Source: Giardia intestinalis (lineage: Eukaryota). From it: DNA of 64,000 nt. Where the stretch lies: assembly GCA_000002435.2 (NCBI GenBank), contig CM018793.1; one strand, given 5' to 3'. Shown piece after piece: positions 15,326 through 32,305 of the stretch. Under the pieces are notes generated by a model that had not been told where the DNA came from, did no database searches, and was given only the letters and a program-made list of their open reading frames with translations. The translations under genes and the position numbers were made by a program. Within the stretch, counting starts at the first letter, position 1. Every line of letters starts with the position of its first letter.

Positions 15326-16690
15326 ATGACCATTGTTCCTGGTCGAAACATTGACAAGGGATTTGCACTGATTAAGGAGGCCGTCGTAAGCGACAATGCC
15401 AAGAAGTATCCTGAGGCATATGAAAAGTATAAGAAAGGAATTGAGCTCATCTCCATTGGCCTTACGTCTGAGACCATAAAGGGTCGAAAGGAAAATCTAG
15501 AGAGTTATCTCGAAAAGGCCAGGTTTAGGATGAAACAACTTGAACAGGTCCTGGTTACCGCACGCGAAAAGGCCAACATGAAAGGTTTGGGACCAAAGCA
15601 AAGTCCTGCTCCTGCACAGCCAAAGAAAGATTTGACACCTCAAGAGCCTCGTAAGAATAATTCTGCCAACGACAGTGTAGAAGACTCAAAGCCAAAGAAA
15701 GCGATTAAGCAGAAGACTGGGGAGGATGACGCCCTCAAGGCTGCGATCTCTAATGTAATTATTCGCATGAAGCCTGATGTTAAATGGGATGACGTTGTTG
15801 GTCTTACAACGGCTAAAGAGGCCCTCAAAGAGGCTGTCATTCTGCCGTTTAAATTTCCCCAGCTTTTCCAAGGCAAGCGCGAGCCGTGGCGCGGGATCCT
15901 CCTGTACGGATGCCCCGGCACCGGCAAGTCGTTCCTCGCGAAGGCGGTCGCTGCAGAGTGCGACGCCACCTTCTTCTCTGTCTCGAGCTCGGACCTGGTG
16001 TCGAAGTACGTCGGCGAGTCTGCCCGCCTCATCAAGGCCCTCTTCGAGCTGGCCCGCGCAGAGAAGCAGGCCGTCATCTTCATCGACGAGATTGACGCCC
16101 TTGCCTCTGCTAGGGGCGGCGGAGAGGAGAGCGACGCGTCTCGCCAGATCAAGACCGAGTTCCTCGTGCAGATGCAGGGCGTCGGCAAGACCGGCGGGAA
16201 CGTCCTGGTTCTGGGCGCGACAAACTACCCGGAGGCGCTCGACAGCGCCATCCGCCGCCGCTTCGAGAAGCGCATCGAGATCGTCCTCCCAGACGCCGCT
16301 GCCAGAGCAAATATCATAAAGAATTGCATCGGCACTACGCCCAATGTGCTAGCAGATGAGGATATCACTGAGCTCGGACAGCAAACAGAAAACTACTCTG
16401 GCTCTGACCTCAGCATATTGTGCAAGGAAGCTCTCATGGACCCCGTGCGCGTGTTGCAGAAGGTGTCCTACTTCCGCCTCAATAAGATCACAGGCATGTA
16501 CGAGGTTTCAGCATCAGACATGCCCGGCGCTGAGAAGAAAGACTTTATGGATATTCCCAACGATAAGCTGACGGTTCCCTATGTCACTGTGAGTAGCCTG
16601 TTGCGTGCCAAGGCAGCCGTGAAGTCGAGCGTCTCCCAAGCTGACAAGTCGCGCATAGCGAAGTTCACAGCGGAGTTCGGCTCCACCTGA
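15326..16690 (+). CDS. Vps4/SKD1-type AAA ATPase (ESCRT-III disassembly) with an N-terminal MIT domain
   Basis: N-terminal MIT-like helices (FALIKEAVVSDNAKKYPEAYEKYKKGIELISIGL) precede the AAA core: Walker A ILLYGCPGTGKSFLAKAVAAE, Walker B AVIFIDEIDAL and SRH (GATNYPEALDSAIRRRFEKRIEI). The Vps4-type C-terminus ends …AKFTAEFGST. ATG preceded by TTATAATTATCGCAATCAGTCCCTTAAAACAAA. Confidence 0.9.
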   Translation: MTIVPGRNIDKGFALIKEAVVSDNAKKYPEAYEKYKKGIELISIGLTSETIKGRKENLESYLEKARFRMKQLEQVLVTAREKANMKGLGPKQSPAPAQPKKDLTPQEPRKNNSANDSVEDSKPKKAIKQKTGEDDALKAAISNVIIRMKPDVKWDDVVGLTTAKEALKEAVILPFKFPQLFQGKREPWRGILLYGCPGTGKSFLAKAVAAECDATFFSVSSSDLVSKYVGESARLIKALFELARAEKQAVIFIDEIDALASARGGGEESDASRQIKTEFLVQMQGVGKTGGNVLVLGATNYPEALDSAIRRRFEKRIEIVLPDAAARANIIKNCIGTTPNVLADEDITELGQQTENYSGSDLSILCKEALMDPVRVLQKVSYFRLNKITGMYEVSASDMPGAEKKDFMDIPNDKLTVPYVTVSSLLRAKAAVKSSVSQADKSRIAKFTAEFGST

Positions 16691-16717
16691 GCTGTTATAG
16701 CTCTGCCGTCATAGCCT

Positions 16718-17545
16718 TTACAGCCGCCTTTCCTCCAAGGTCGAAGTGAGATATCCAGTTGTCTGTGTCTGTGCGCTTATCAGTCTTCGTTTTTCTTTCT
16801 GATTGGGCCTATTAAGGCTGGAGCAGTCTACCGTGAAGTGACGCGTGGTCTCGATTGTATGGTCGTGCGAAAGCATTTCCAGTCGCAAGCACAGGCTTCC
16901 AACAACCTCCGAATCGAGGACGATTGGGTAGGTGTCGGATATTTGTGTAAACTGACGATCCTTATGTGTCATGTTCCTGCTGAATGTAAATGGGCGGGCC
17001 GCGACTTCACCGACCACTCGGGAGTCAGCACCTGGGACCGGCGCCGTGCAGAGCTGCAGCTTCACCAAGAGATAGTGCAAGGACTCAAGAAAGAGGGGCG
17101 GCGGGGGACAGAGCACGATGCACTCGTTGGGGATCTGGACGGAAGGTCCGTGGTTTGTCTGGATTCTGGTAAGAATGCGATTGGCGGCGTCGTTAGTCTT
17201 ACAGCGTGTGCCAAGCTCCGACCTGACTACGATGTTGTGGACCGATAGAAGAAGAGGGGCACAGGAGTTCACGCGCAGAGACACCCACCTTGGCAGTCCT
17301 GGCTGCACCGGGACGGTGGGGCAGATGTTTCCATGCCCATCCAGGTATAGTACATGCAAGGATGTCTCGGCCGAGGACGCCCGAGTCTGTGTCTCTTCGT
17401 CCACGGATACGCGGCTGTCTGCGAGACGCTCGGTGTGGTCCATAAGTCGTGTGCGCTGCCTTGCAAGCTTGTCATACCGTATCATGTATCCCTTGAGACG
17501 CTTCGCCCTCTGCTTGGCCTCCATGTTGTTTTCCAATCCACACAT
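16718..17545 (-). CDS. Hypothetical protein (coding strand uncertain)
   Basis: The track ORF starts at a TTG (17647). The first true ATG (MCGLENNMEAKQ…) is preceded by CATAATAAAAGC, a plausible initiator. Overlapping plus-strand ORFs (16838..17248, 17118..17558) exist and there are no recognisable motifs, so this call is weak. Confidence 0.3.
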   Translation of the reverse strand: MCGLENNMEAKQRAKRLKGYMIRYDKLARQRTRLMDHTERLADSRVSVDEETQTRASSAETSLHVLYLDGHGNICPTVPVQPGLPRWVSLRVNSCAPLLLSVHNIVVRSELGTRCKTNDAANRILTRIQTNHGPSVQIPNECIVLCPPPPLFLESLHYLLVKLQLCTAPVPGADSRVVGEVAARPFTFSRNMTHKDRQFTQISDTYPIVLDSEVVGSLCLRLEMLSHDHTIETTRHFTVDCSSLNRPNQKEKRRLISAQTQTTGYLTSTLEERRL

Positions 17546-22035: not shown

Positions 22036-25000
22036 ATGGGGGACAGAAACCTGGACTGGAACCGGACGACCGCCCCGCTCCCGTTCGTGTGGTCGGACAT
22101 GGAGCCGGCGATCTACGAGCTCAGCGAGTCGTTCCTCCCCGTGGACCTGTCCGCCTCCCACCTCGCGCTGGGCAGGTCGTCGTTCCTCTCGCTCTTCGAG
22201 GACGAGCTGGGCGCCGACGAGGCGAGGCGGGGCTACGACGGGCTTCTGCCGGAGAGGCCGGGACCCTGCACCCTGGCGGCCTCGCCCCTGCCGGCCAAGC
22301 GGGCGCACGTGAGCTCCCTACTGGCGGAGGCCAGGCGCGGCGCATTCGAGTCCCAGCTGGAGCGGAGCGTCCTGCCCAGCTCCACCGTCTTCGCGCGCCT
22401 GGAGCAGGCCCTCCAGCGACCCCCGGAGGGCAGCAAGGCGGCGCTCCAGGCGGCCCTGTTCTACGTGCTCGGCCTCCGCATAAGCTGCGCCCTGCCCCTC
22501 CCCCTGGACCCCGACACCGTGGTGAAGCGGGCGCTCCTCCTCTTCCTCCACAACGGCGGCTCCTTTTTCAGGCAGGTCCTCAAGCGGTTCGGCGTCCTCG
22601 CCGGCGAGTGCGCGGTCTCCCTCTCGGACTTGAGGGCGGAGTCGACGCAGAACGCAAGCAAGCAGCTCCCGCCTCCCCTGACCCACTGCATCCAGGTCCT
22701 GCATCTTGTGCTGACCTCCCTGAACCTGCGGGGGGTCACCGTCTTCGAGCACACCGTCTACGATCGCCTGGACGGCTCAGTCGACTGCTCGCCCTACCTC
22801 CACACCTTCGAAGGCTTCGTCAGGGCTCTGGTCCACCCCCTTGCGCTCCTACTCTCCAAGCTGATCCAGGCAGACGCAGGCCCGCACAACAACACCTTCA
22901 ACAACGCGATCGCCCGCTGCGTGGCTTGCTGCCGCCCGGTGGCCCTGCTGAGACAGGCGCTCCTCCTCCTCCTGGGCCCGCTGGGCGACCACAAGCAGGC
23001 CCGGAAGTGCCGGAGCATCCGCAGGATGGCCCTGGAGGAGCAGGGCAGCGCCGGGTCTTGCGCGATCAAGACCGTCAAGCGGCTTCCGCCCCCGCGCTTC
23101 CGTGGCTACGTCAACCCCACATCCTCGTCTGTCGCGGCCCTGCTGCGGTTCTTCGAGGGCTCGTTCAGGCCGAAGGACACCCCCTTCTCGTCCGGCAACG
23201 TCTCCCCCTACGCCGATAAAGGCGTCGCAGACCAGATGGCAGAGTGTGCAAGCGTCATTACGGCCTTCAACGCCCGCCAGCCCAACAGGCGGCGCCCGGG
23301 GCTCTTCCCGGGGCTCGCAGAGGAGTACGCCAACCGGAGGGACGAGGCCGCGCTAGGCCTCTTCCAGCTGCTCCCCAGGCCGGACGTGCGGATCGGCCTG
23401 CAGTCCCTGGCAGACCTCCACGGCGGGTACATGGCCATGCGGTACAGCTGCGACGCCAGAGAGTCAGTCATGTCGCGCTCCCAGGAGACCTCTGTCGGCG
23501 GCCGGAGCGACCTGGACGGCGGGTACGACGCCGAGCTGGAGCGCACCCTCGGCAACGTGGTGGTCACCAGCGACTACCGCATGTACCTCAACAGGGTCAA
23601 GCGGGGGCTGACCGCGTCCTTCCCGTTCTCGGGGAGGCCGGTTGCGAAGGGCAATCTGCCCTACTTCGAGCGGTGCATAGAGAAGGTGCTGTCCTTCAAC
23701 TACCACGAGGAGCGGTTCCGCAGCATCAAATACCACGAGCTGGTCAACGTGCTCACCTACGCGCTTCCCCTGGACGTCCAGCGGGCGATGCTCGTCAGCA
23801 TTTCCAACGAGGCCGACTGCGTCCTGGAGCACCAGTTCTACCACCTGATCCGAGAGGTCGACATGCCGGCGTTCCTCTCGTCGCTGCTCCGCCTGGCGCT
23901 GTGCGGGGTCCCCCACATGCTCGAGACGGTCCTGTCGGCCAAGGCGACTGCGGGCACGACGAAGGACGCTGAGAAGGGCGCGTTCTCCAACAACACCCCG
24001 TCGTCCACGCGGCACGTCCGGGAGTCTGTGCTGAAGAGCTGCCTCCACGTCCTTCTCCTCCTGCAGGCGAAGGCCCGCCAGGTCCACCCGAGCGTGGGCC
24101 TTTTCGTCTCCAGCATAATACAGCGGTGCAACGGTCAGGGGTGCGGGCTCGACGCCGTCATCGCCACCATGTGCCTGCCTGCGGCCGCGTACATAACGGG
24201 CGTGGACCCGCGGACCGCCGCGCTGGGCACGTGCCTTTTCCTCCCCGGCCAGGCCGCGGACGCGCTCGCTCCGGACGAGCGGGTGGCCGACGCAGGCGAG
24301 TTCCTCCAGGCCAGGCCCGCCAAGCAGGGCGCCCCGCCGGACCCGGCGCTAGACCCCGCGAGGCCCCTCCACAGCATGGCGAGCGGCAGGCGGCTGTTCT
24401 GCCTGCTGACGGCGTCGCGCTGCTTCTACGGCTACATCTCGCACTCCGCGTCCCGGGCCCAGGAGGCCCTCGCCCTCTACTCGAAGGTGAGCGCCAATTA
24501 CATCTCGTACATCCTGCAGTCCTCCAGCACGGCGGCCAGCCAGGGGTCTGCCGCTGCCGCCGCAAGCCAGGCCCTTCCAGACAACCTCAGCCAGACGACC
24601 GTCTTCACCAGGGGCGCCCTGCAGCGCAAGGCAGGGGCCGCGGCGCAGAGCGTCCCGGGCGGGGGCTCCAGGCCGCCGATGGCGTACATCCCGAACAACC
24701 TGGCCAACCTGATGGAGTTCCTGCGCGGAGACAATAGCACCAACAACCCCGCCAACATAAACACGGCGGGCACGCTCACGTGCAACTTCCCGGGGTACCA
24801 GCTGTCCAAGGTCAACAACCTTTCGTCCATCGTCGTGCTTCTGAAGATCGCCAAGCACATACTGCCCTTCGCGGCGGGGGACTACTCGCGCATATACGGG
24901 GTGTTCGAGCTGCAGGGCCTCCCCGCCTTCCGCGAGTACCTGACGAAGCTCATCTACCAGCTCTCCATAAGCCCGTGCAGCGAGGACAGCTGGCGCTGGA

Positions 25001-25224
25001 CGAGGGACGTCGTCGCGAAGAACGCGGCGATCTTCGCAGAGTTCGAGCGCGCCGCCTTAATAGCCTTCACCGAGAAGTACCTCCTGCCCGACCGCCACCC
25101 GTCGCTGGCCCACTACGGGTGGCTCTACGAGAGCAGCCTGCCCGACGCCCCGGAGCAGTACGCGGCGGAGGAGGCCGTTGCGCTCTCCCAGCTCCACGCG
25201 GGATGGCCCTGTAACCGCATCTGA
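22036..25224 (+). CDS. Large hypothetical protein (1062 aa) encoded in a very GC-rich (about 68% GC) segment
   Basis: Uninterrupted 3.2-kb ORF with an ATG after CAAAA. The amino-acid composition is diverse (F/Y/W/N/H present, not merely Ala/Pro/Arg), which argues for genuine coding. All other frames over this span carry long stop-free ORFs purely because of GC richness. No motif recognised. Confidence 0.6.
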   Translation: MGDRNLDWNRTTAPLPFVWSDMEPAIYELSESFLPVDLSASHLALGRSSFLSLFEDELGADEARRGYDGLLPERPGPCTLAASPLPAKRAHVSSLLAEARRGAFESQLERSVLPSSTVFARLEQALQRPPEGSKAALQAALFYVLGLRISCALPLPLDPDTVVKRALLLFLHNGGSFFRQVLKRFGVLAGECAVSLSDLRAESTQNASKQLPPPLTHCIQVLHLVLTSLNLRGVTVFEHTVYDRLDGSVDCSPYLHTFEGFVRALVHPLALLLSKLIQADAGPHNNTFNNAIARCVACCRPVALLRQALLLLLGPLGDHKQARKCRSIRRMALEEQGSAGSCAIKTVKRLPPPRFRGYVNPTSSSVAALLRFFEGSFRPKDTPFSSGNVSPYADKGVADQMAECASVITAFNARQPNRRRPGLFPGLAEEYANRRDEAALGLFQLLPRPDVRIGLQSLADLHGGYMAMRYSCDARESVMSRSQETSVGGRSDLDGGYDAELERTLGNVVVTSDYRMYLNRVKRGLTASFPFSGRPVAKGNLPYFERCIEKVLSFNYHEERFRSIKYHELVNVLTYALPLDVQRAMLVSISNEADCVLEHQFYHLIREVDMPAFLSSLLRLALCGVPHMLETVLSAKATAGTTKDAEKGAFSNNTPSSTRHVRESVLKSCLHVLLLLQAKARQVHPSVGLFVSSIIQRCNGQGCGLDAVIATMCLPAAAYITGVDPRTAALGTCLFLPGQAADALAPDERVADAGEFLQARPAKQGAPPDPALDPARPLHSMASGRRLFCLLTASRCFYGYISHSASRAQEALALYSKVSANYISYILQSSSTAASQGSAAAAASQALPDNLSQTTVFTRGALQRKAGAAAQSVPGGGSRPPMAYIPNNLANLMEFLRGDNSTNNPANINTAGTLTCNFPGYQLSKVNNLSSIVVLLKIAKHILPFAAGDYSRIYGVFELQGLPAFREYLTKLIYQLSISPCSEDSWRWTRDVVAKNAAIFAEFERAALIAFTEKYLLPDRHPSLAHYGWLYESSLPDAPEQYAAEEAVALSQLHAGWPCNRI

Positions 25225-26477: not shown

Positions 26478-28584
26478 TTACTCGTGAGATCGTGGAGCAG
26501 CTTGGCGGCTGTTGCGACCACCGAGGCCCGGTATACGGCTGTCCCTAAGGAAAGATGCTATCTCAGAGTAGCCCTTGGCCTCAAGCTTATCAAAGAGGGA
26601 TTCGTCAGACTTGTCTATTAGATGCCCCTCCTTTTCAAATAGCAGCTTCACTATCTCTAAGCGGCCGCCATACGCTGCGTGCGTGATAGCGGGTAAGCCA
26701 TGGGGATCCAGCATGCAGCCTTCGCGCTCCATCAACAGCTGCACTACTTCTGCATGATTCTCAGAGGCAGCCTTCATGAGGGCGGTCGCATTACAAGTAT
26801 TCCCTGGGCCACTCTCATATTGCATTAGCAGTTGTACTGCTGCTACGTGGCCGCATACTGCTGCTTGTATTAGCGCCGTCCCAGTATGTGTCCATCGCTT
26901 CTTCTGAATGGGTATAAGTGCGCTTACTGCTAATGTGTCGCTTATTTTTGCGGCTCGCATGAGCGCTGTGACGCCCCTATCATCGGTTGGGTCGAGAACC
27001 TCCACTACGTTTTCGTGTCCTGCCTCTGCCGCAAGGATCCGAGCCGTCTTGCCTTGTCTGTCGGTCAGGTCCTCCTCGTACGGAGCCAGAACAGAAGCAG
27101 CCTCCGCATGGCCCTCCTGTGCAGCAATCATCAGAGCAGTACGGCCGTTCTTGCTCTTCCTCCCATGCTCATGAGGGATGAGAATCCTAGCTACCTCAGG
27201 ATGGTTCCCGTGTGCGGCGTGCATGAGCGCGGTCCAGCCGTTTTTATCTTTGATACCCTTCTCCTTCTCAACAAGCAGCTCAACAGGCCCACCGTGCCCC
27301 TGCTGGGCCGCGTGCATGAGGGCCGTCATCCCCCGCTTGTCGCGCTGGCCGATACAATCTTTCTCGTTGGCCAGCATCCGGACGGTCTCCATGTCATTCG
27401 TGTGTGCAGCATATATTAGTTTGAACAAGGAGAGGTCCGTCTGGGTGCCAACCACTTTCATTTCACTATTGGATTGTGTAAACTTATCCTCCAGTGCTTT
27501 TATCCGGCCTTCAAGCGTGCCAATCCCGGTGGTCTTAACTCTGGGTTCTTGCCCCAAGGCGTTGGCTTCACTTGGCCTGCTCTCAAGAGCGCCCTTGAAA
27601 GAGGCAGTCTCAGCAGACTTGGCGTCGAGGACTGCCTCAAGAATAGCAATCCTAGCATTAGCATTATTCAGAGCAGTCTTCAGGGAGCCGCATTCGTACT
27701 TCAGCACCGCATATTGAGCCCCCAGCTCACTAACTGGGATGTCGAATGTAGCGAGCGTCTCATGCAGCTCCCTGGCCGTCGGCCTCCTCTCTGGCTCTAG
27801 TACAAAGATCCTCTCCAGAACATTCTGCATGAAGCCATCAGTGATGCCACTCAGGTCCGGCCTCCACCCATCGACGAAGACCTCTGCCGGCTCCTTGCCC
27901 CCCAAGAAGTCCGGTCTCCTCAAAGTAGTAAGCTCGTAGACGATGGCCCCGAGGTTCCACATGTCGGAGGCGGGGCTGGCCTCGTTGCGGAGGAGCACCT
28001 CGGGGGCCACGTATGCCATTATTCCCATGAGAGTGCTCCCACTCCACAGGGCGTCCTTGCAGAGGCCGAGGCCAGTGATGACGAAGTGTTCACCATCTGC
28101 GCTGATAAGGACGTTGGCAGGCCTGAGGTCACAGTGGACAAGTCTCTCGGTATCTGCCCCACTGGCCCCGTAGAGGTAGGCGAGGGCGGCGGCGACCTGC
28201 CTCAGGACGGAGAGAATCACAGCGATAGGGACGAGAGTCTTCCTTCGTTTGTGCTCGGTGAGGAGGTGCTCAAGGGTCTTGTCTTGGCGATCCGTAACGA
28301 CGTAGATGAGGCCTTCGTCCTCGACCACTTGATGGTGCTTGAGGACTCCTGGATGGGAGAGGTCGGGGAGGGCGGTCAGCCCACGCTTTAGCATCCACAC
28401 CGTGCTGACCCAGACCGTCGAGCCGGATCTCCTTCACAGTGAGGTAGGGGTATCCCCTGAGAGAGTAGACTGTTCCCGCGGCACTTTCACTAAGCACATC
28501 ATCCAGCCCCTCGTAGAGCTCCCTGGGGGTGAACTGCGGGGCACTGAGAGCCACCGTTGCAGACCCAGACGAGGCGGCGTACAT
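26478..28584 (-). pseudogene. NEK-type protein kinase with a C-terminal ankyrin-repeat array, interrupted by a single frameshift between kinase subdomains II and IV (pseudogene or indel error)
   Basis: The upstream ORF 28270..28584 has a true ATG, an AT-rich initiator, and the kinase N-lobe GTVYSLRGYPYLTVKEIRLDG (Gly-loop and VAVK-Lys region). The 640-aa ORF 26478..28400 begins at a GTG and starts mid-kinase (…LSHPGVLKHHQ…LIYVVTD…HCDLRPANVLIS…GIMAYVAPEVL), then continues into a coiled coil and at least 6 ankyrin repeats (GMTALMHAAQQGH…). The two frames overlap at 28270..28443, and the +/-1 shift lies within about 28395..28443. Confidence 0.65.
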
Positions 28585-30646: not shown

Positions 30647-32305
30647 TTACTCGAGCTCGTACATCCGCGCCGTGGTGATCTCTAAGAGCTCGGTTGTGAG
30701 CATGTTGGCCTTAACCCACGAGACGAAGGCGCTCTTGCAGTACGCCTCAAACGCCGCCTTCTGCTCGGCTGTCAACGAGGGATCCCGTATCTTCCTACCA
30801 AGCACGGTCAGCTTTTCAGACCTCTCCTTCATGGTCTGCCGGAAGACCGAGGGCAGAATGATCGGCAGCGCTTTGGTCTTTCCCGTCAGAAGCTTCGAGT
30901 CGAACGGGACCACCGCGGTGCAGTACGTCTTTGGATCCATGAATATCAGATTCTCACACACTCCCAGCCCCAGTGGGCTGTAGAGCTTCATCCCAAAGCT
31001 CTCGCCCTGCTGGCAGATGTCCGCTAGTCCTTGCTGCTGCAGGCAATCCTCCAGTGAGGGGAATATGTAATTGTAGGGGGCAATCTTATTCGTCTTTGTG
31101 TTGCTGTCATGCACACAGGAGTTCCGACTGGTGACATACATCAGACAGTTCTCAATGGTATTTGCCTTGAAGAAGTCCGCTACGGCAGAGAAGGTCATAC
31201 GCATGCAGTAGCACATGGAGACGGTCCCCGCCACGGTCCCCAGGACGATCTTTACGTTTCTGCAGTTGGCAATGACGACGTGTGAGCAGGGAGCAATCAG
31301 AAATATGGTGCAGTTGGCGCAGTTGGCAATGACAGCTGTGGGGGGTCTATGGGTAGCGGCAGCGAAGACCCCTATCCCTGCCTTGGAAAGGCTTCTGATG
31401 CGAATGTGGTTATAGCGATCATCATACTCATATGTGGGGATCCCCGATGCAGACGTACCTGGACGAGCCTGCGGGCATCCTGACGCCAGTGCTGGGCTAG
31501 CAGGGGCACTTAGCTGCGCCTTGGCTTCCAGTGTCGGCGTCGACAAGGTTCCCGAGGTACTTAAGACGTTAGACGAAGAAGACGACAGCTGAGGCTGATA
31601 GGAGCGAATAGGATCGGGAGCTGATGAAAATACAATATTTGCACAGTCGTACGTCGTGATGTTAAAGAAGCGAGAAATAGAGCTTGCTACAGTAAGAACT
31701 GGATCACCAATAGAAATCTCGAAAAATGCACAGAATGAGTCAACGAAATCTTCCTGCTGACTTGTCTCTGCCTGAAGCAATATATCCAGGCCTTCGATAG
31801 CATCCTTCGTCAGCGCAATATCAGCTCCATTGATAGATCCTGCTTGTACAGCTTCAGGGGTAAGGCAGAGCGCAGCAATGAGGATGTTGACATTGAGTGA
31901 AAAGTAGCTTTTTATCAGCGAGTCCAGATCTTCCCCGTTCATGCTCAATGGCCACGCATCATCCGTGGCCATGGCAGACTTCTTTGAGAGCATGGAGTGT
32001 CTAAATATCACGGAAAAGAGAAATACAATGAATCTGTGAACTGTGGGAAGACTGCGAATAACACCTCGAATCCCGCAAGCAAGCGTCGCCTCGAACAAAT
32101 TATAGATCATTGCAATCTCTTGTTCCTTAAGCCCGCAGCAGTCTGCGCCGACTTTTTGCCAGAGGGCAAAGGTCATCTTGTTCTGAAATTCGGTTGCACC
32201 CGTCAGACAAAGGGCTGCGATGCTTGCAAAGTTATCTAATGAGAGCCGGGACTTACTGCTGATGTTGAACAGGGTGAGGAAGATGACCTCTTCACGAAGC
32301 CGCAT
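30647..32305 (-). CDS. TBCC-domain (tubulin-binding cofactor C / CARP beta-helix) protein, TBCCD1-like
   Basis: Central repeats TAVIANCANCTIFLIAPCSHVVIANCRNVKIVLGTVAGTVSMCYC match the TBCC/RP2 beta-helix repeat (x-N-C-x-N-C-x-I-x-L). 552 aa, true ATG. Confidence 0.5.
   Translation of the reverse strand: MRLREEVIFLTLFNISSKSRLSLDNFASIAALCLTGATEFQNKMTFALWQKVGADCCGLKEQEIAMIYNLFEATLACGIRGVIRSLPTVHRFIVFLFSVIFRHSMLSKKSAMATDDAWPLSMNGEDLDSLIKSYFSLNVNILIAALCLTPEAVQAGSINGADIALTKDAIEGLDILLQAETSQQEDFVDSFCAFFEISIGDPVLTVASSISRFFNITTYDCANIVFSSAPDPIRSYQPQLSSSSSNVLSTSGTLSTPTLEAKAQLSAPASPALASGCPQARPGTSASGIPTYEYDDRYNHIRIRSLSKAGIGVFAAATHRPPTAVIANCANCTIFLIAPCSHVVIANCRNVKIVLGTVAGTVSMCYCMRMTFSAVADFFKANTIENCLMYVTSRNSCVHDSNTKTNKIAPYNYIFPSLEDCLQQQGLADICQQGESFGMKLYSPLGLGVCENLIFMDPKTYCTAVVPFDSKLLTGKTKALPIILPSVFRQTMKERSEKLTVLGRKIRDPSLTAEQKAAFEAYCKSAFVSWVKANMLTTELLEITTARMYELE

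Follow-up and report, generated by a model that had tools for sequence, protein, structure and literature searches.

Recurrent gene conversion between two old Vps4 paralogues of Giardia, and a GC3-rich block that coincides with the tract

Introduction

Ectopic gene conversion, the copying of sequence between dispersed duplicates, can leave its mark on base composition. GC content is raised by ectopic conversion in the mammalian Hsp70 and histone paralogues and in duplicates of yeast and Arabidopsis, and in paralogues of the Hsp70/histone type the rise is attributed to GC-biased mismatch repair. That ectopic conversion raises the GC content of duplicates was reportedly found by Galtier in 2003, by Kudla et al. 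in 2004 and by Benovoy et al. in 2005. The locus that we describe here, the Vps4a gene of Giardia intestinalis, resembles these cases in that GC3 is raised in the converted DNA relative to unconverted flanks or single-copy relatives, silent sites included. It differs from them in three ways: the tract is limited to one subdomain in a two-member family, its edges are reproducible to about 30 nt across four lineages, and one lineage, Giardia muris, converts without GC enrichment.

A study of the fungal Hsp70 genes SSA and SSB is said to describe concerted evolution of old paralogues that is limited to one domain. There, as in Vps4, the duplicates of a species are made uniform over their conserved catalytic part but not in the regions that confer their specific functions, and trees built from the conserved part falsely suggest recent, lineage-specific duplications. 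The Vps4 case concerns another protein family in another organism, and it is coupled to a sharp step in composition.

Within Giardia, non-reciprocal gene conversion is known from the G. duodenalis sub-assemblages AI and AII, where the median event is 3.3 kb, VSP genes are enriched, and the genes involved are GC-enriched (median GC 0.541 vs 0.488; PMC12669663). The Vps4 case shares with these events the organism, the GC enrichment and a process of conversion rather than crossing-over. However, the AI/AII events are allelic or between strains, whereas Vps4 conversion is interlocus: it takes place between two genes of a single genome, spans about 0.43 kb and has recurred over a far longer evolutionary time, G. 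muris included. In 2010, a survey of duplicated genes in Giardia left conversion out of account because its mechanism in Giardia was "still unresolved" (PMC2829556), and we found no earlier description, in the literature searched, of ectopic conversion between housekeeping paralogues of a diplomonad. Codon usage has been treated at the level of whole genes: in G. duodenalis each of the 26 "optimal" codons has G or C at its third position, and GC3 is correlated with CAI (PMC8393687). The bias in Vps4a has the same direction, towards G- and C-ending codons. The gene-level model predicts a property of the gene as a whole, but in Vps4a the bias turns on and off inside the ORF, where a recombination tract begins and ends, and conservation does not explain it.

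Results and discussion

The Vps4a gene and its GC3 mosaic

The gene lies in a 64-kb stretch of the G. intestinalis WB genome (64,000 nucleotides; the window), to which all coordinates refer. An exact-sequence look-up identified the ORF as Vacuolar protein sorting 4a of G. intestinalis WB, and the sequences of the published glvps4a primers are found at 15326-15345 and 16676-16695. Pfam finds, in order, MIT (aa 9-73, E=2.7e-11), AAA (191-319, 8.2e-41), AAA_lid_3 (344-375, 1.2e-9) and Vps4_C (399-452, 4.2e-11), and the protein matches yeast and human Vps4 structures over its full length with E about 1e-104 (5e-104 for yeast Vps4, PDB 5uie). Judged by these matches, the ORF encodes a bona fide Vps4 (SKD1), a meiotic-clade AAA ATPase that disassembles ESCRT-III, with an MIT domain, a single AAA cassette, a lid and a C-terminal helix. 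K201, D254/E255 and R310-R312 occupy invariant columns in an alignment of 20 eukaryotic Vps4 sequences. Walker A reads GCPGTGKS; the usual form is GPPGTGKS. The features of the gene are as follows.

15326..16690, plus strand: Vps4a coding sequence (GL50803_101906; XP_001705076.1 / KAE8305545.1), 454 aa and a stop codon, from the ORF list, Pfam, PDB and exact-sequence look-up
15326..15757, plus strand: MIT domain and linker, paralogue-specific and unconverted by paralogue distance and informative sites, GC3 about 0.47
15758..15865, plus strand: conserved block adjoining the tract upstream, aa 145-180, not homogenised in assemblage A by pS and informative sites
15866..16306, plus strand: gene-conversion tract shared with Vps4b (GL50803_16795), which is also the GC3-rich block; aa 181-327, large alpha/beta AAA subdomain
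15866..16006, plus strand: 5' sub-block of the tract, less completely or less recently homogenised, GC3 eroded in E and B
15908..15931, plus strand: Walker A GCPGTGKS, aa 195-202, in the tract, from the sequence; G195, P197, G198, T199, G200 and K201 invariant
15961, plus strand: sole base difference between Vps4a and Vps4b within the tract in assemblage A, from the alignment
16007..16279, plus strand: 3' core of the tract, with a single paralogue difference in E and none in A or B
16073..16090, plus strand: Walker B VIFIDE, aa 250-255, in the tract; F252, I253, D254 and E255 invariant
16253..16261, plus strand: arginine-finger/SRH arginines R310-R312, in the tract; all three invariant
16307..16690, plus strand: AAA lid and Vps4_C, paralogue-specific and unconverted by distance and informative sites, GC3 about 0.67

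Composition changes twice along the ORF. GC and GC3 are 0.453 and 0.47 over 15326-15868, 0.651 and 0.86 over 15869-16318, and 0.527 and 0.68 over 16319-16690, with only a modest rise of GC1 and GC2 in the block. A preliminary description of this DNA, made from its letters, had reported a GC3-rich block confined to part of the Vps4 ORF, at 15870-16320. This holds, with GC3 of 0.47 before the block, 0.86-0.90 within it and about 0.67 after it, and the coordinates, the quoted sequence and the 45% GC given for the 5' part were all accurate. A three-segment maximum-likelihood fit places the change-points at 15872 and 16288, with segment GC3 of 0.47, 0.90 and 0.66, and gains 35.8 log-likelihood units against a maximum of 14.0 over 100 shuffles. 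The 64-kb window holds 33 non-overlapping ORFs that reach 150 aa or more, and in 100-codon windows Vps4a has the widest intragenic range of GC3 among them (0.46; the next are 0.43 and 0.35).

A tract homogenised between Vps4a and Vps4b

The preliminary description had proposed that the block was a gene-conversion tract from a GC3-rich AAA paralogue and that a near-identical tract might be found in another gene of the genome. Such a tract is present in Vps4b of the same strain: over 15866-16306 the two genes are identical at 440 of 441 positions, and the flanks differ at about half of all bases (46-53%). Elsewhere in the 64-kb window the tract does not recur. The same arrangement occurs in the other lineages, with tract edges at 15857-16296 in E, 15854-16279 in B and 15840-16275 in G. 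muris. Within a genome, paralogue p-distances in the tract are as low as 0.002 in A and reach 0.005 in B, 0.010 in G. muris and 0.012 in E, an identity of 98.8-99.8% with silent sites included; in the flanks they are 0.44-0.54 (G. intestinalis) or 0.38-0.46 (G. muris). The tracts of different lineages are further apart, at 0.036-0.041 (A-E), 0.08 (A-B) and 0.24 (G. intestinalis vs G. muris).

Phylogenetic signal reverses at the edges of the tract. All 32 informative sites that sort in the tract group the sequences by genome (0 by paralogue), whereas in the flanks 226 group them by paralogue and 19 by genome. The flanking signal is spread over the three unconverted segments: 113 sites by paralogue and 9 by genome over 15326-15700, where the Vps4a/Vps4b nucleotide distance is about 0.64; 20 and 3 over 15701-15865; and 93 and 7 over 16307..16690, where the distance is 0.46. 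In the block just upstream of the tract (15758..15865) the paralogues of assemblage A have a pS of 0.86. Neighbour-joining trees group the tract by genome, in all four lineages, and the flanks by paralogue (all 4a and all 4b of G. intestinalis), with 100% bootstrap support. In the 5' flank of G. muris the two copies pair together at 99%, which makes the orthology of each copy less clear. Synteny is kept at each Vps4 locus. Since the flanks have the opposite topology, that of orthology, the Vps4a/Vps4b duplication is old.

Silent sites tell the same story. Between paralogues, dS is 0.01-0.05 within the tract and saturated beyond it in G. intestinalis; between orthologues, it is 0.18-2.3 within the tract. 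Because the identity of the paralogues reaches silent sites, selection at the level of the protein cannot account for it. Substitutions polarised to the A and B branches are common to both paralogues, so conversion took place in each lineage after the two had split. From these alignments and trees we conclude that the tract has undergone recurrent ectopic (interlocus) gene conversion, with concerted evolution, between the old paralogues Vps4a and Vps4b, and that its homogenisation has happened repeatedly, and separately, in assemblage A, in E, in B and in G. muris.

An assembly artefact, in which similar genes are collapsed or their reads mixed into one consensus, might mimic homogenisation, since short reads do not span a near-identical repeat of 441 bp and several loci were taken from assemblies of short reads or of metagenomes. 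We consider this explanation scarcely credible. The pattern occurs in independent assemblies (the WB reference, a Logan assembly, P15, GS_b, an ENA metagenome and G. muris) and in seven independent data sets in all, including the chromosome-scale assemblies of WB and G. muris; every pair retains 1-5 paralogue-specific differences within the tract; and both genes of each lineage carry the silent substitutions particular to that lineage (32 between A and B). Published protein records of both WB genes have the common core, and the GC3 step is present in the window sequence itself, independent of any other assembly. We encountered no substantive evidence against conversion itself.

The tract is not uniform. 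Eight differences separate the paralogues within the genomes of A, E and B, and seven of them fall in 15866..16006 (p=0.003). GC3 in this 5' sub-block drops from 0.87-0.89 in A to 0.79-0.83 in E and 0.62-0.64 in B, and in the 3' core (16007-16279) it is 0.87-0.92 in all G. intestinalis lineages. The best-fit GC3-rich segment in both B copies is 16007-16273, and ten C>T/G>A changes of lineage B are clustered at 15901-16006 (permutation p=1.5e-4). By this distribution, conversion events have had differing end-points, with 16007-16279 the most thoroughly homogenised part and 15866-16006 less so. At the ends of the tract the residues become paralogue-specific (PFKF vs PMMF upstream, ARANIIKNCIG vs ARKNILRSGIG downstream). 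The tract may stop where these residues start either because divergence blocks extension of the heteroduplex or because selection purges conversions that overwrite them.

The GC3 excess belongs to the tract in both genes

GC enrichment and the conversion tract are co-located in both genes of assemblage A. The change-points of Vps4a are offset by 6 nt and 18 nt from the edges of conversion at 15866 and 16306, and the GC3-rich step of Vps4b spans 15857-16288. Across A, E, B and a further lineage, X, GC3 is 0.82-0.91 in the tract and 0.39-0.67 in the flanks. The excess is thus a property of the tract in both genes, which carry the same mosaic. The preliminary description had taken a GC3 step in orthologues as a sign against conversion, but the step is present in the E and B orthologues and in the Vps4b of lineage X, and conversion holds as well; a long history of repeated conversion in every lineage is the probable reason that the orthologues carry the step.

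The donor that had been proposed fares less well than the tract. A paralogous Vps4 partner exists, but it is not GC3-rich: GC3 in Vps4b of WB is 0.49 upstream of the tract and 0.43 downstream. Since Vps4b is GC3-poor beyond the tract, the composition does not appear to have been brought in from a GC3-rich donor. One could still suppose that a uniformly GC3-rich donor (Vps4c, GL50803_15469, or another, possibly foreign, Vps4) replaced the core in a single event in the ancestor of the G. intestinalis complex, that the excess is a slowly decaying relic, and that later Vps4a/Vps4b conversion only keeps the copies identical. The lack of an excess in G. muris agrees with an origin on the G. intestinalis branch, some decay is occurring (21 raw S>W changes vs 5 W>S in the tract, and an implied equilibrium GC3 of 0.73, below the present 0.88), and the AT-ward patch of ten changes in lineage B resembles a single event from another template. 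However, the sole identified partner is GC3-poor outside the tract (0.39-0.52), and no other Giardia protein with a near-identical core is found among the best 120 matches to full-length Vps4a. In addition, GC3 is still 0.85-0.91 in A, E and X despite silent divergence of 0.18-0.65, and the per-site S>W rate in the tract is half that of the flanks while the W>S rate is at least equal, which argues for active maintenance rather than free decay to 0.5. A chimeric or foreign origin, also raised in the preliminary description, finds no support: the tract encodes an unremarkable Vps4 core, which shares 65-73% identity with fragments of eukaryotic Vps4, and the tree of the tract agrees with the Giardia lineages. 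We therefore regard a one-off import as improbable.

Codon-usage selection and amino-acid conservation

Selection on codon usage, for the efficiency or accuracy of translation of the catalytic core, could produce the GC3 excess with conversion coincident and not causal. In a variant, conversion provides local recombination, and weak selection for GC-ending codons thereby gains in efficacy in a genome that is mostly clonal. That the reported optimal codons all end in G or C (PMC8393687) favours such selection, as do milder domain-linked rises of GC3 in other genes of the window, namely TBCC (0.72-0.85) and the kinase domain of a NEK (0.70-0.85 vs near 0.5 in linkers). The silent sites of the tract are constrained, with orthologue dS 2-8 times lower than in the flanks, and in G. 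muris conversion proceeds without a GC3 excess, so that conversion alone is insufficient.

Other observations do not fit codon selection. An effect linked to expression should span the whole gene, yet the first 181 codons of Vps4a have a GC3 of 0.47; a bias that scales with conservation over the whole gene, which expression- or accuracy-linked selection requires, is not seen in Vps4a. For example, the block at aa 145-180 is as conserved as the tract (mean conservation 0.72 vs 0.71) but has a GC3 of 0.38. In a logistic model, the tract given conservation dominates (chi2=33.8, p=6e-9), and conservation given the tract retains a small independent effect (p=0.037), a point in favour of codon selection. 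Among sites at least 90% conserved, GC3 is 0.90 inside the tract and 0.58 outside it (p=3e-4). Amino-acid conservation does not explain the GC3 excess of the tract. Edges of GC3 that match the edges of conversion to 6-18 nt in both paralogues are likewise not what codon selection predicts. Four-fold codons in the tract favour C over G more than those of the GC3-rich genes of the window (0.71 vs 0.54), as codon selection might predict, but C/(C+G) in the rest of Vps4a is the same (0.67), so the preference for C is not specific to the tract, and C- versus G-ending codons do not discriminate between the hypotheses. On balance we judge codon-usage selection unlikely as the cause.

GC-biased conversion as the likeliest cause

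We favour a different account, and think it probable though well short of certain: the GC3-rich block is the footprint of recurrent Vps4a/Vps4b conversion together with an accompanying fixation bias that favours GC. Such a bias would both make the GC3 excess and keep it in place; this second step is the less certain of the two. Its most likely form would be GC-biased repair of heteroduplex mismatches, or GC-biased gene conversion (gBGC), which is the likeliest, although not a proven, cause of the excess.

The substitution pattern is consistent with such a bias. At third positions of the tract, S>W changes occur at 0.094 and W>S changes at 0.25 per site (ratio 2.7, implied GC3* 0.73), and in the flanks at 0.201 and 0.209 (ratio 1.04, implied GC3* 0.51); the per-site W>S bias of the tract is marginal (p=0.047) and rests on small counts (5 W>S on 20 sites). 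The bias would halve the silent GC-to-AT substitution rate within the tract of both genes. There is also a relation resembling a dose-response, in that the better-homogenised 3' core holds its high GC3 and the 5' block is eroded to 0.62-0.83 in B and E. In lineage B, fixed changes common to both paralogues are 10-12 S>W vs 0-1 W>S, and because they are AT-ward in both genes, conversion seems to have spread AT-ward changes there.

Several findings count against gBGC. Besides the AT-ward changes of lineage B, they include the raw counts in the tract, where S>W changes outnumber W>S changes (21 vs 5), an implied equilibrium GC3 (0.73) lower than the present 0.88, and the milder domain-linked rises of GC3 in other genes of the window. 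G. muris is a further one. Its tract is as homogenised as those of G. intestinalis but has a GC3 of 0.65, not above its flanks (0.63-0.79) or neighbouring genes, and a change-point fit on it gives no significant GC3 step. The contrast could reflect a difference between lineages in repair bias. We suspect that the bias is specific to the G. intestinalis complex and weakens where conversion is rarer. Since the tract is wholly coding, gBGC is inseparable in it from selection for GC-ending codons.

Implications

The sequences of four lineages give evidence of ectopic homologous recombination between dispersed housekeeping paralogues in Giardia, an organism whose sexuality is still debated (PMC12669663). 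Conversion of Vps4 acts between different chromosomes in G. muris, and has been ongoing since before G. muris and G. intestinalis split. In WB, to judge by accession numbers, the two loci would share a 4.02-Mb contig with some 48 genes between them.

GlVps4a and GlVps4b are reported to differ in localisation and partners (PMC12611102). Since their ATPase engines are identical, these differences must reside in the MIT domain and linker and in the lid and C-terminus. There are practical consequences as well. Clustering of sequences at 90% merges Vps4a and Vps4b, and not only such clustering but also trees, dating of the duplication by dS, primers, RNAi or morpholino reagents and antibodies will be misled when they target the core. 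The Vps4 tract also offers a natural experiment on the GC bias of conversion in a deep-branching eukaryote, with its flanks as an internal control and G. muris as a contrast.

A broader possibility, which we put forward as speculation and think rather unlikely, is that recurrent ectopic conversion that favours GC is a general force on codon usage in the G. intestinalis complex and that the Vps4a and Vps4b cores are kept identical by selection. If so, much of the "optimal codon" bias, with gene GC3 from 26% to 99%, would be a footprint of homogenisation in multi-copy or conversion-prone DNA. Identity of the cores would be selected because Vps4a and Vps4b co-assemble into mixed hexamers, and conversion would be maintained for the compatibility of subunits and not by accident.

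Other features of the tract and window

Candidate RNAs and overlapping genes were considered and rejected. The sole Rfam match, mir-485, is at chance level (20 bits vs a gathering threshold of 70, E=0.32), and the folding z-score of -0.61 does not indicate a structured or embedded non-coding RNA. Two overlapping ORFs, at 15640..16188 on the minus strand and 15777..16319 on the plus strand, have no Pfam match and are expected because GC-rich DNA is poor in stop codons. Elsewhere in the window, the most GC3-rich of the small genes (GC3 0.94) is a member of a family that has six or more copies at 90% identity or higher in WB.

A GC-rich core within Vps4a

Solved structures of yeast and human Vps4 align end to end with the product of the ORF at 15326..16690 (E ~1e-104), and published cloning primers identify the gene as GlVps4a (matches at 15326-15345 and 16676-16695). 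Third-position GC (GC3) is 0.47 in 15326-15868, 0.86 in 15869-16318 and 0.68 in the remainder of the gene, with total GC of 0.453, 0.651 and 0.527, respectively. A three-segment likelihood fit placed change-points at 15872 and 16288 (GC3 of 0.47, 0.90 and 0.66). The intragenic mosaic noted in the preliminary description is real and statistically strong, with a log-likelihood gain of 35.8 vs at most 14.0 in 100 shuffles, and the internal GC3 range of Vps4a is the greatest among the 33 long ORFs in the window.

Features of Vps4a
15326..16690, + strand, GlVps4a (GL50803_101906), a 454-aa Vps4 (MIT, aa 9-73; AAA, 191-319; AAA lid, 344-375; Vps4_C, 399-452)
15866-16306, + strand, the tract, encoding aa 181-327 (large alpha/beta ATPase subdomain) and ending before the lid
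15908-15931, + strand, Walker A, inside the tract
16073-16090, + strand, Walker B, inside the tract
16253-16261, + strand, SRH arginines, inside the tract

All Giardia copies of Vps4a and its paralogue Vps4b have lineage-specific changes in two otherwise near-invariant motifs: Walker A is GCPGTGKS (GPPGTGKS in other eukaryotes; 15908-15931) and pore loop 1 is SKYVGES (consensus SKW-GES, yeast SKWMGES; ~16001-16021).

Concerted evolution of Vps4a and Vps4b

We compared Vps4a of the window, which is from G. intestinalis WB (assemblage A), with syntenic orthologues from assemblage E (P15, L007) and assemblage B (GS_b, L009; metagenome contig L001), with Vps4b DNA from assemblages A (L003, GL50803_16795), E (L008) and B (L002) and a further lineage, X (L006), and with both Vps4 genes of G. 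muris (L004, L005). In nucleotide-level codon alignments, near-identity of the two paralogues within a genome coincides exactly with the GC3-rich block and occurs nowhere else. The proposal that this block is a gene-conversion tract involving a Vps4 paralogue was borne out by Vps4b of assemblage A, which has a single mismatch (15961) in the 441 nt of 15866-16306. The paralogues have 5 mismatches in P15 (15857-16296), 2 in GS_b (15854-16279) and 3 in G. muris (15840-16275). Directly beyond these limits mismatches return to approximately 1 base in 3, and paralogue divergence across the entire flanks is 44-54% for G. intestinalis and 38-46% for G. muris.

The tract groups by genome and, in G. intestinalis, the flanks group by gene. 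Between lineages the tract diverges by 3.6-4.1% (A-E), 8% (A-B), 13% (A-X) and 24% (G. intestinalis vs G. muris). For the quartet of both paralogues from A and B, 32 informative sites in the tract support grouping by genome and 0 by paralogue, vs 19 and 226, respectively, in the flanks. In neighbor-joining trees, every within-genome pair has 100% bootstrap support in the tract; in both flanks, the G. intestinalis sequences separate into an "all Vps4a" and an "all Vps4b" group, each supported at 100%. Paralogue dS is 0.01-0.05 inside the tract and saturated outside it (G. intestinalis), whereas orthologue dS inside the tract is 0.18 (A-E), 0.38 (A-B) and >2 (to G. muris), indicating that silent differences build up between lineages and are then common to both genes of a lineage. 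Changes polarised to the A branch and to the B branch are also common to Vps4a and Vps4b, and thus conversion continued in each lineage after the split. Judged from these sequence comparisons, the tract almost certainly reflects concerted evolution through recurrent ectopic gene conversion between Vps4a and Vps4b.

Two other explanations for the identity were rejected. Selection on the protein does not account for silent sites that are also near-identical, and an assembly artefact is contradicted by the recurrence of the pattern in 7 independent data sets, in which each pair has a few paralogue-specific bases.

Origin of the GC3 excess

The preliminary description attributed the composition to a GC3-rich donor or a chimeric origin. 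Vps4b is not such a donor: it is the same mosaic, its GC3 being 0.49 on the upstream side of the tract and 0.43 on the downstream side, with a step fitted at 15857-16288 (assemblage A). A chimeric origin of the core was unsupported, and a single import from an unseen GC3-rich donor seems improbable. The step is present in E, B and X as well (tract GC3 of 0.85/0.86, 0.82-0.83 and 0.91, respectively).

Several observations tie the excess to the tract itself. When GC3 was fitted by logistic regression to tract membership and per-site conservation (from 20 eukaryotic Vps4 sequences), tract membership dominated (chi2=33.8, p=6e-9) and conservation contributed little (p=0.037). Among sites conserved at 90% or more, GC3 is 0.90 within the tract vs 0.58 elsewhere (p=3e-4), and the block at aa 145-180 is as conserved as the tract, yet its GC3 is 0.38. 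Conservation-linked codon selection is therefore not sufficient to explain tract GC3. Silent sites in the tract are under constraint: relative to the flanks, orthologue dS is reduced 2-8-fold, and it is also below that of the aa 145-180 block. Third-position GC-to-AT changes have a per-site rate of 0.094 in the tract vs 0.201 in the flanks, and AT-to-GC changes one of 0.25 vs 0.209; the implied equilibrium GC3 is 0.73 for the tract and 0.51 for the flanks, the latter in agreement with the observed value. There is also a dose-response, in which the best-homogenised 3' core holds GC3 of 0.87-0.92 in all G. intestinalis lineages and the less homogenised 5' block has dropped to 0.79-0.83 (E) and 0.62-0.64 (B). 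Together, the model, constraint, rates and dose-response point to a fixation bias in favour of GC that is tied to the tract. The simplest mechanism would be GC-biased repair in the course of conversion. On balance, we lean toward the GC3 excess being a by-product of biased conversion between Vps4a and Vps4b, with GC-biased gene conversion (gBGC) as the probable, though unproven, mechanism.

Some of the data count against gBGC. The G. muris tract is homogenised without a GC3 excess (0.65 vs flanks of 0.63-0.79, no significant step), and the per-site AT-to-GC bias is based on 5 events (p=0.047). In both paralogues, lineage B fixed 10-12 GC-to-AT changes vs 0-1 opposite changes, so conversion there spread AT-ward changes, or another template supplied a patch. 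Ten of the GC-to-AT changes, third-position C>T/G>A changes common to both paralogues of assemblage B (L001, L002, L009), lie in the 106 nt of 15901-16006; the cluster (permutation p=1.5e-4) resembles a single patch copied from a different template, or a local burst of mutation that conversion then spread.

Localised codon selection, possibly helped by conversion as local recombination, is an unlikely source of the excess. All G/C-ending codons count as "optimal" in Giardia (PMC8393687) and the tract is wholly coding, and thus gBGC and codon selection make the same prediction here. Milder domain-linked GC3 rises in other genes of the window also argue against gBGC. In a TBCC-family protein (30647-32305, - strand; internal range 0.43), the TBCC domain and C-terminus have the higher GC3, as does the kinase domain in a NEK kinase (26478-28394, - strand; 0.35). 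Either pattern may stem from paralogue conversion or from domain-linked selection.

As context, two observations agree with gBGC. In G. duodenalis, genes affected by conversion events between sub-assemblages are GC-enriched (PMC12669663). "Ankyrin repeat protein 2" (KAE8305549.1; 25557-26315, - strand), with ankyrin repeats and a RING finger, has GC3 of 0.94, and at least 6 distinct WB copies on 3 contigs fall in its 90%-identity cluster; this multi-copy family is extremely GC3-rich and homogenised, and is a candidate for the same link between conversion and GC. Separately, GL50803_00114497 (22036-25224, + strand), a 1062-aa hypothetical protein without a Pfam match, has a uniform GC3 of 0.92.

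Tract limits and genomic context

The tract edges agree across lineages to within 26 nt (5') and 31 nt (3') and adjoin paralogue-specific residues (PFKF vs PMMF upstream; ARANIIKNCIG vs ARKNILRSGIG downstream). Extension of heteroduplex may be limited there by divergence or by selection. Homogenisation is uneven: 7 of the 8 within-genome mismatches of A, E and B fall in 15866-16006 (p=0.003), and in the 3' core (16007-16279) the paralogues are identical in A and B, with 1 mismatch in E. G. muris has an extra near-identical block upstream (~15721-15804, 1 mismatch), separated from the main tract by a diverged island (15805-15839). This unevenness and the extra block imply several conversion events with differing end-points. 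The tract matches no Rfam family and has no excess of RNA structure (folding z=-0.61), two long ORFs overlapping it match no family, and there is no second copy of it within the window.

In WB, the two genes appear to share a contig; the distance is taken from their protein accession numbers, which are 48 apart. In G. muris they are on different chromosomes. Comparison of the G. muris Vps4a locus (L004) with the window and the Vps4b loci of B and E (L002/L008) revealed mixed neighbours. Its 131-aa upstream neighbour is homologous to the 135-aa neighbour of G. intestinalis Vps4b (34% identity, E=4e-18), and downstream it has the neighbours of G. intestinalis Vps4a (methyltransferase, Metallophos) in inverted arrangement. 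This mixture implies a rearrangement with a breakpoint at or adjoining a Vps4 gene, which the shared tract could conceivably have mediated. The ORF immediately 3' of Vps4a (GL50803_00137699; 16718-17545, - strand) has a paralogue of at least 90% identity, GL50803_00137692 (KAE8301234), on another contig and 2 accession numbers from an "Ankyrin repeat protein 2" copy (KAE8301232). The pair suggests a segmental duplication that took in DNA adjoining Vps4a.

Relation to known systems

Interlocus conversion that affects just the conserved portion of old duplicates has ample precedent, and so does GC enrichment in converted paralogues (Hsp70, histones, yeast and plant duplicates). The Giardia tract is a fresh example of this phenomenon. 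The two ESCRT papers in which GlVps4a, b and c are defined mention neither conversion, concerted evolution nor an identical core, and no description of tract conversion in Giardia Vps4 appears in the open literature searched. A 2010 survey of Giardia duplicates put conversion aside, its mechanism in Giardia being "still unresolved" (PMC2829556). The 2025 G. duodenalis population study (PMC12669663) concerns conversion between strains, whereas the Vps4 tract reflects conversion between paralogues. The tract is relevant to cell biologists working on the Giardia Vps4 paralogues and to studies of how putatively asexual protists recombine and use codons.

Database records for the two genes are uneven. 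Because their core is identical, Vps4a (454 aa) and Vps4b (483 aa) fall into one cluster at 90%. Older names are "Topoisomerase II" for Vps4b and "SKD1 protein" or "Putative AAA family protein" for Vps4a, and the annotated start of Vps4b varies among records (519 aa vs 483 aa).
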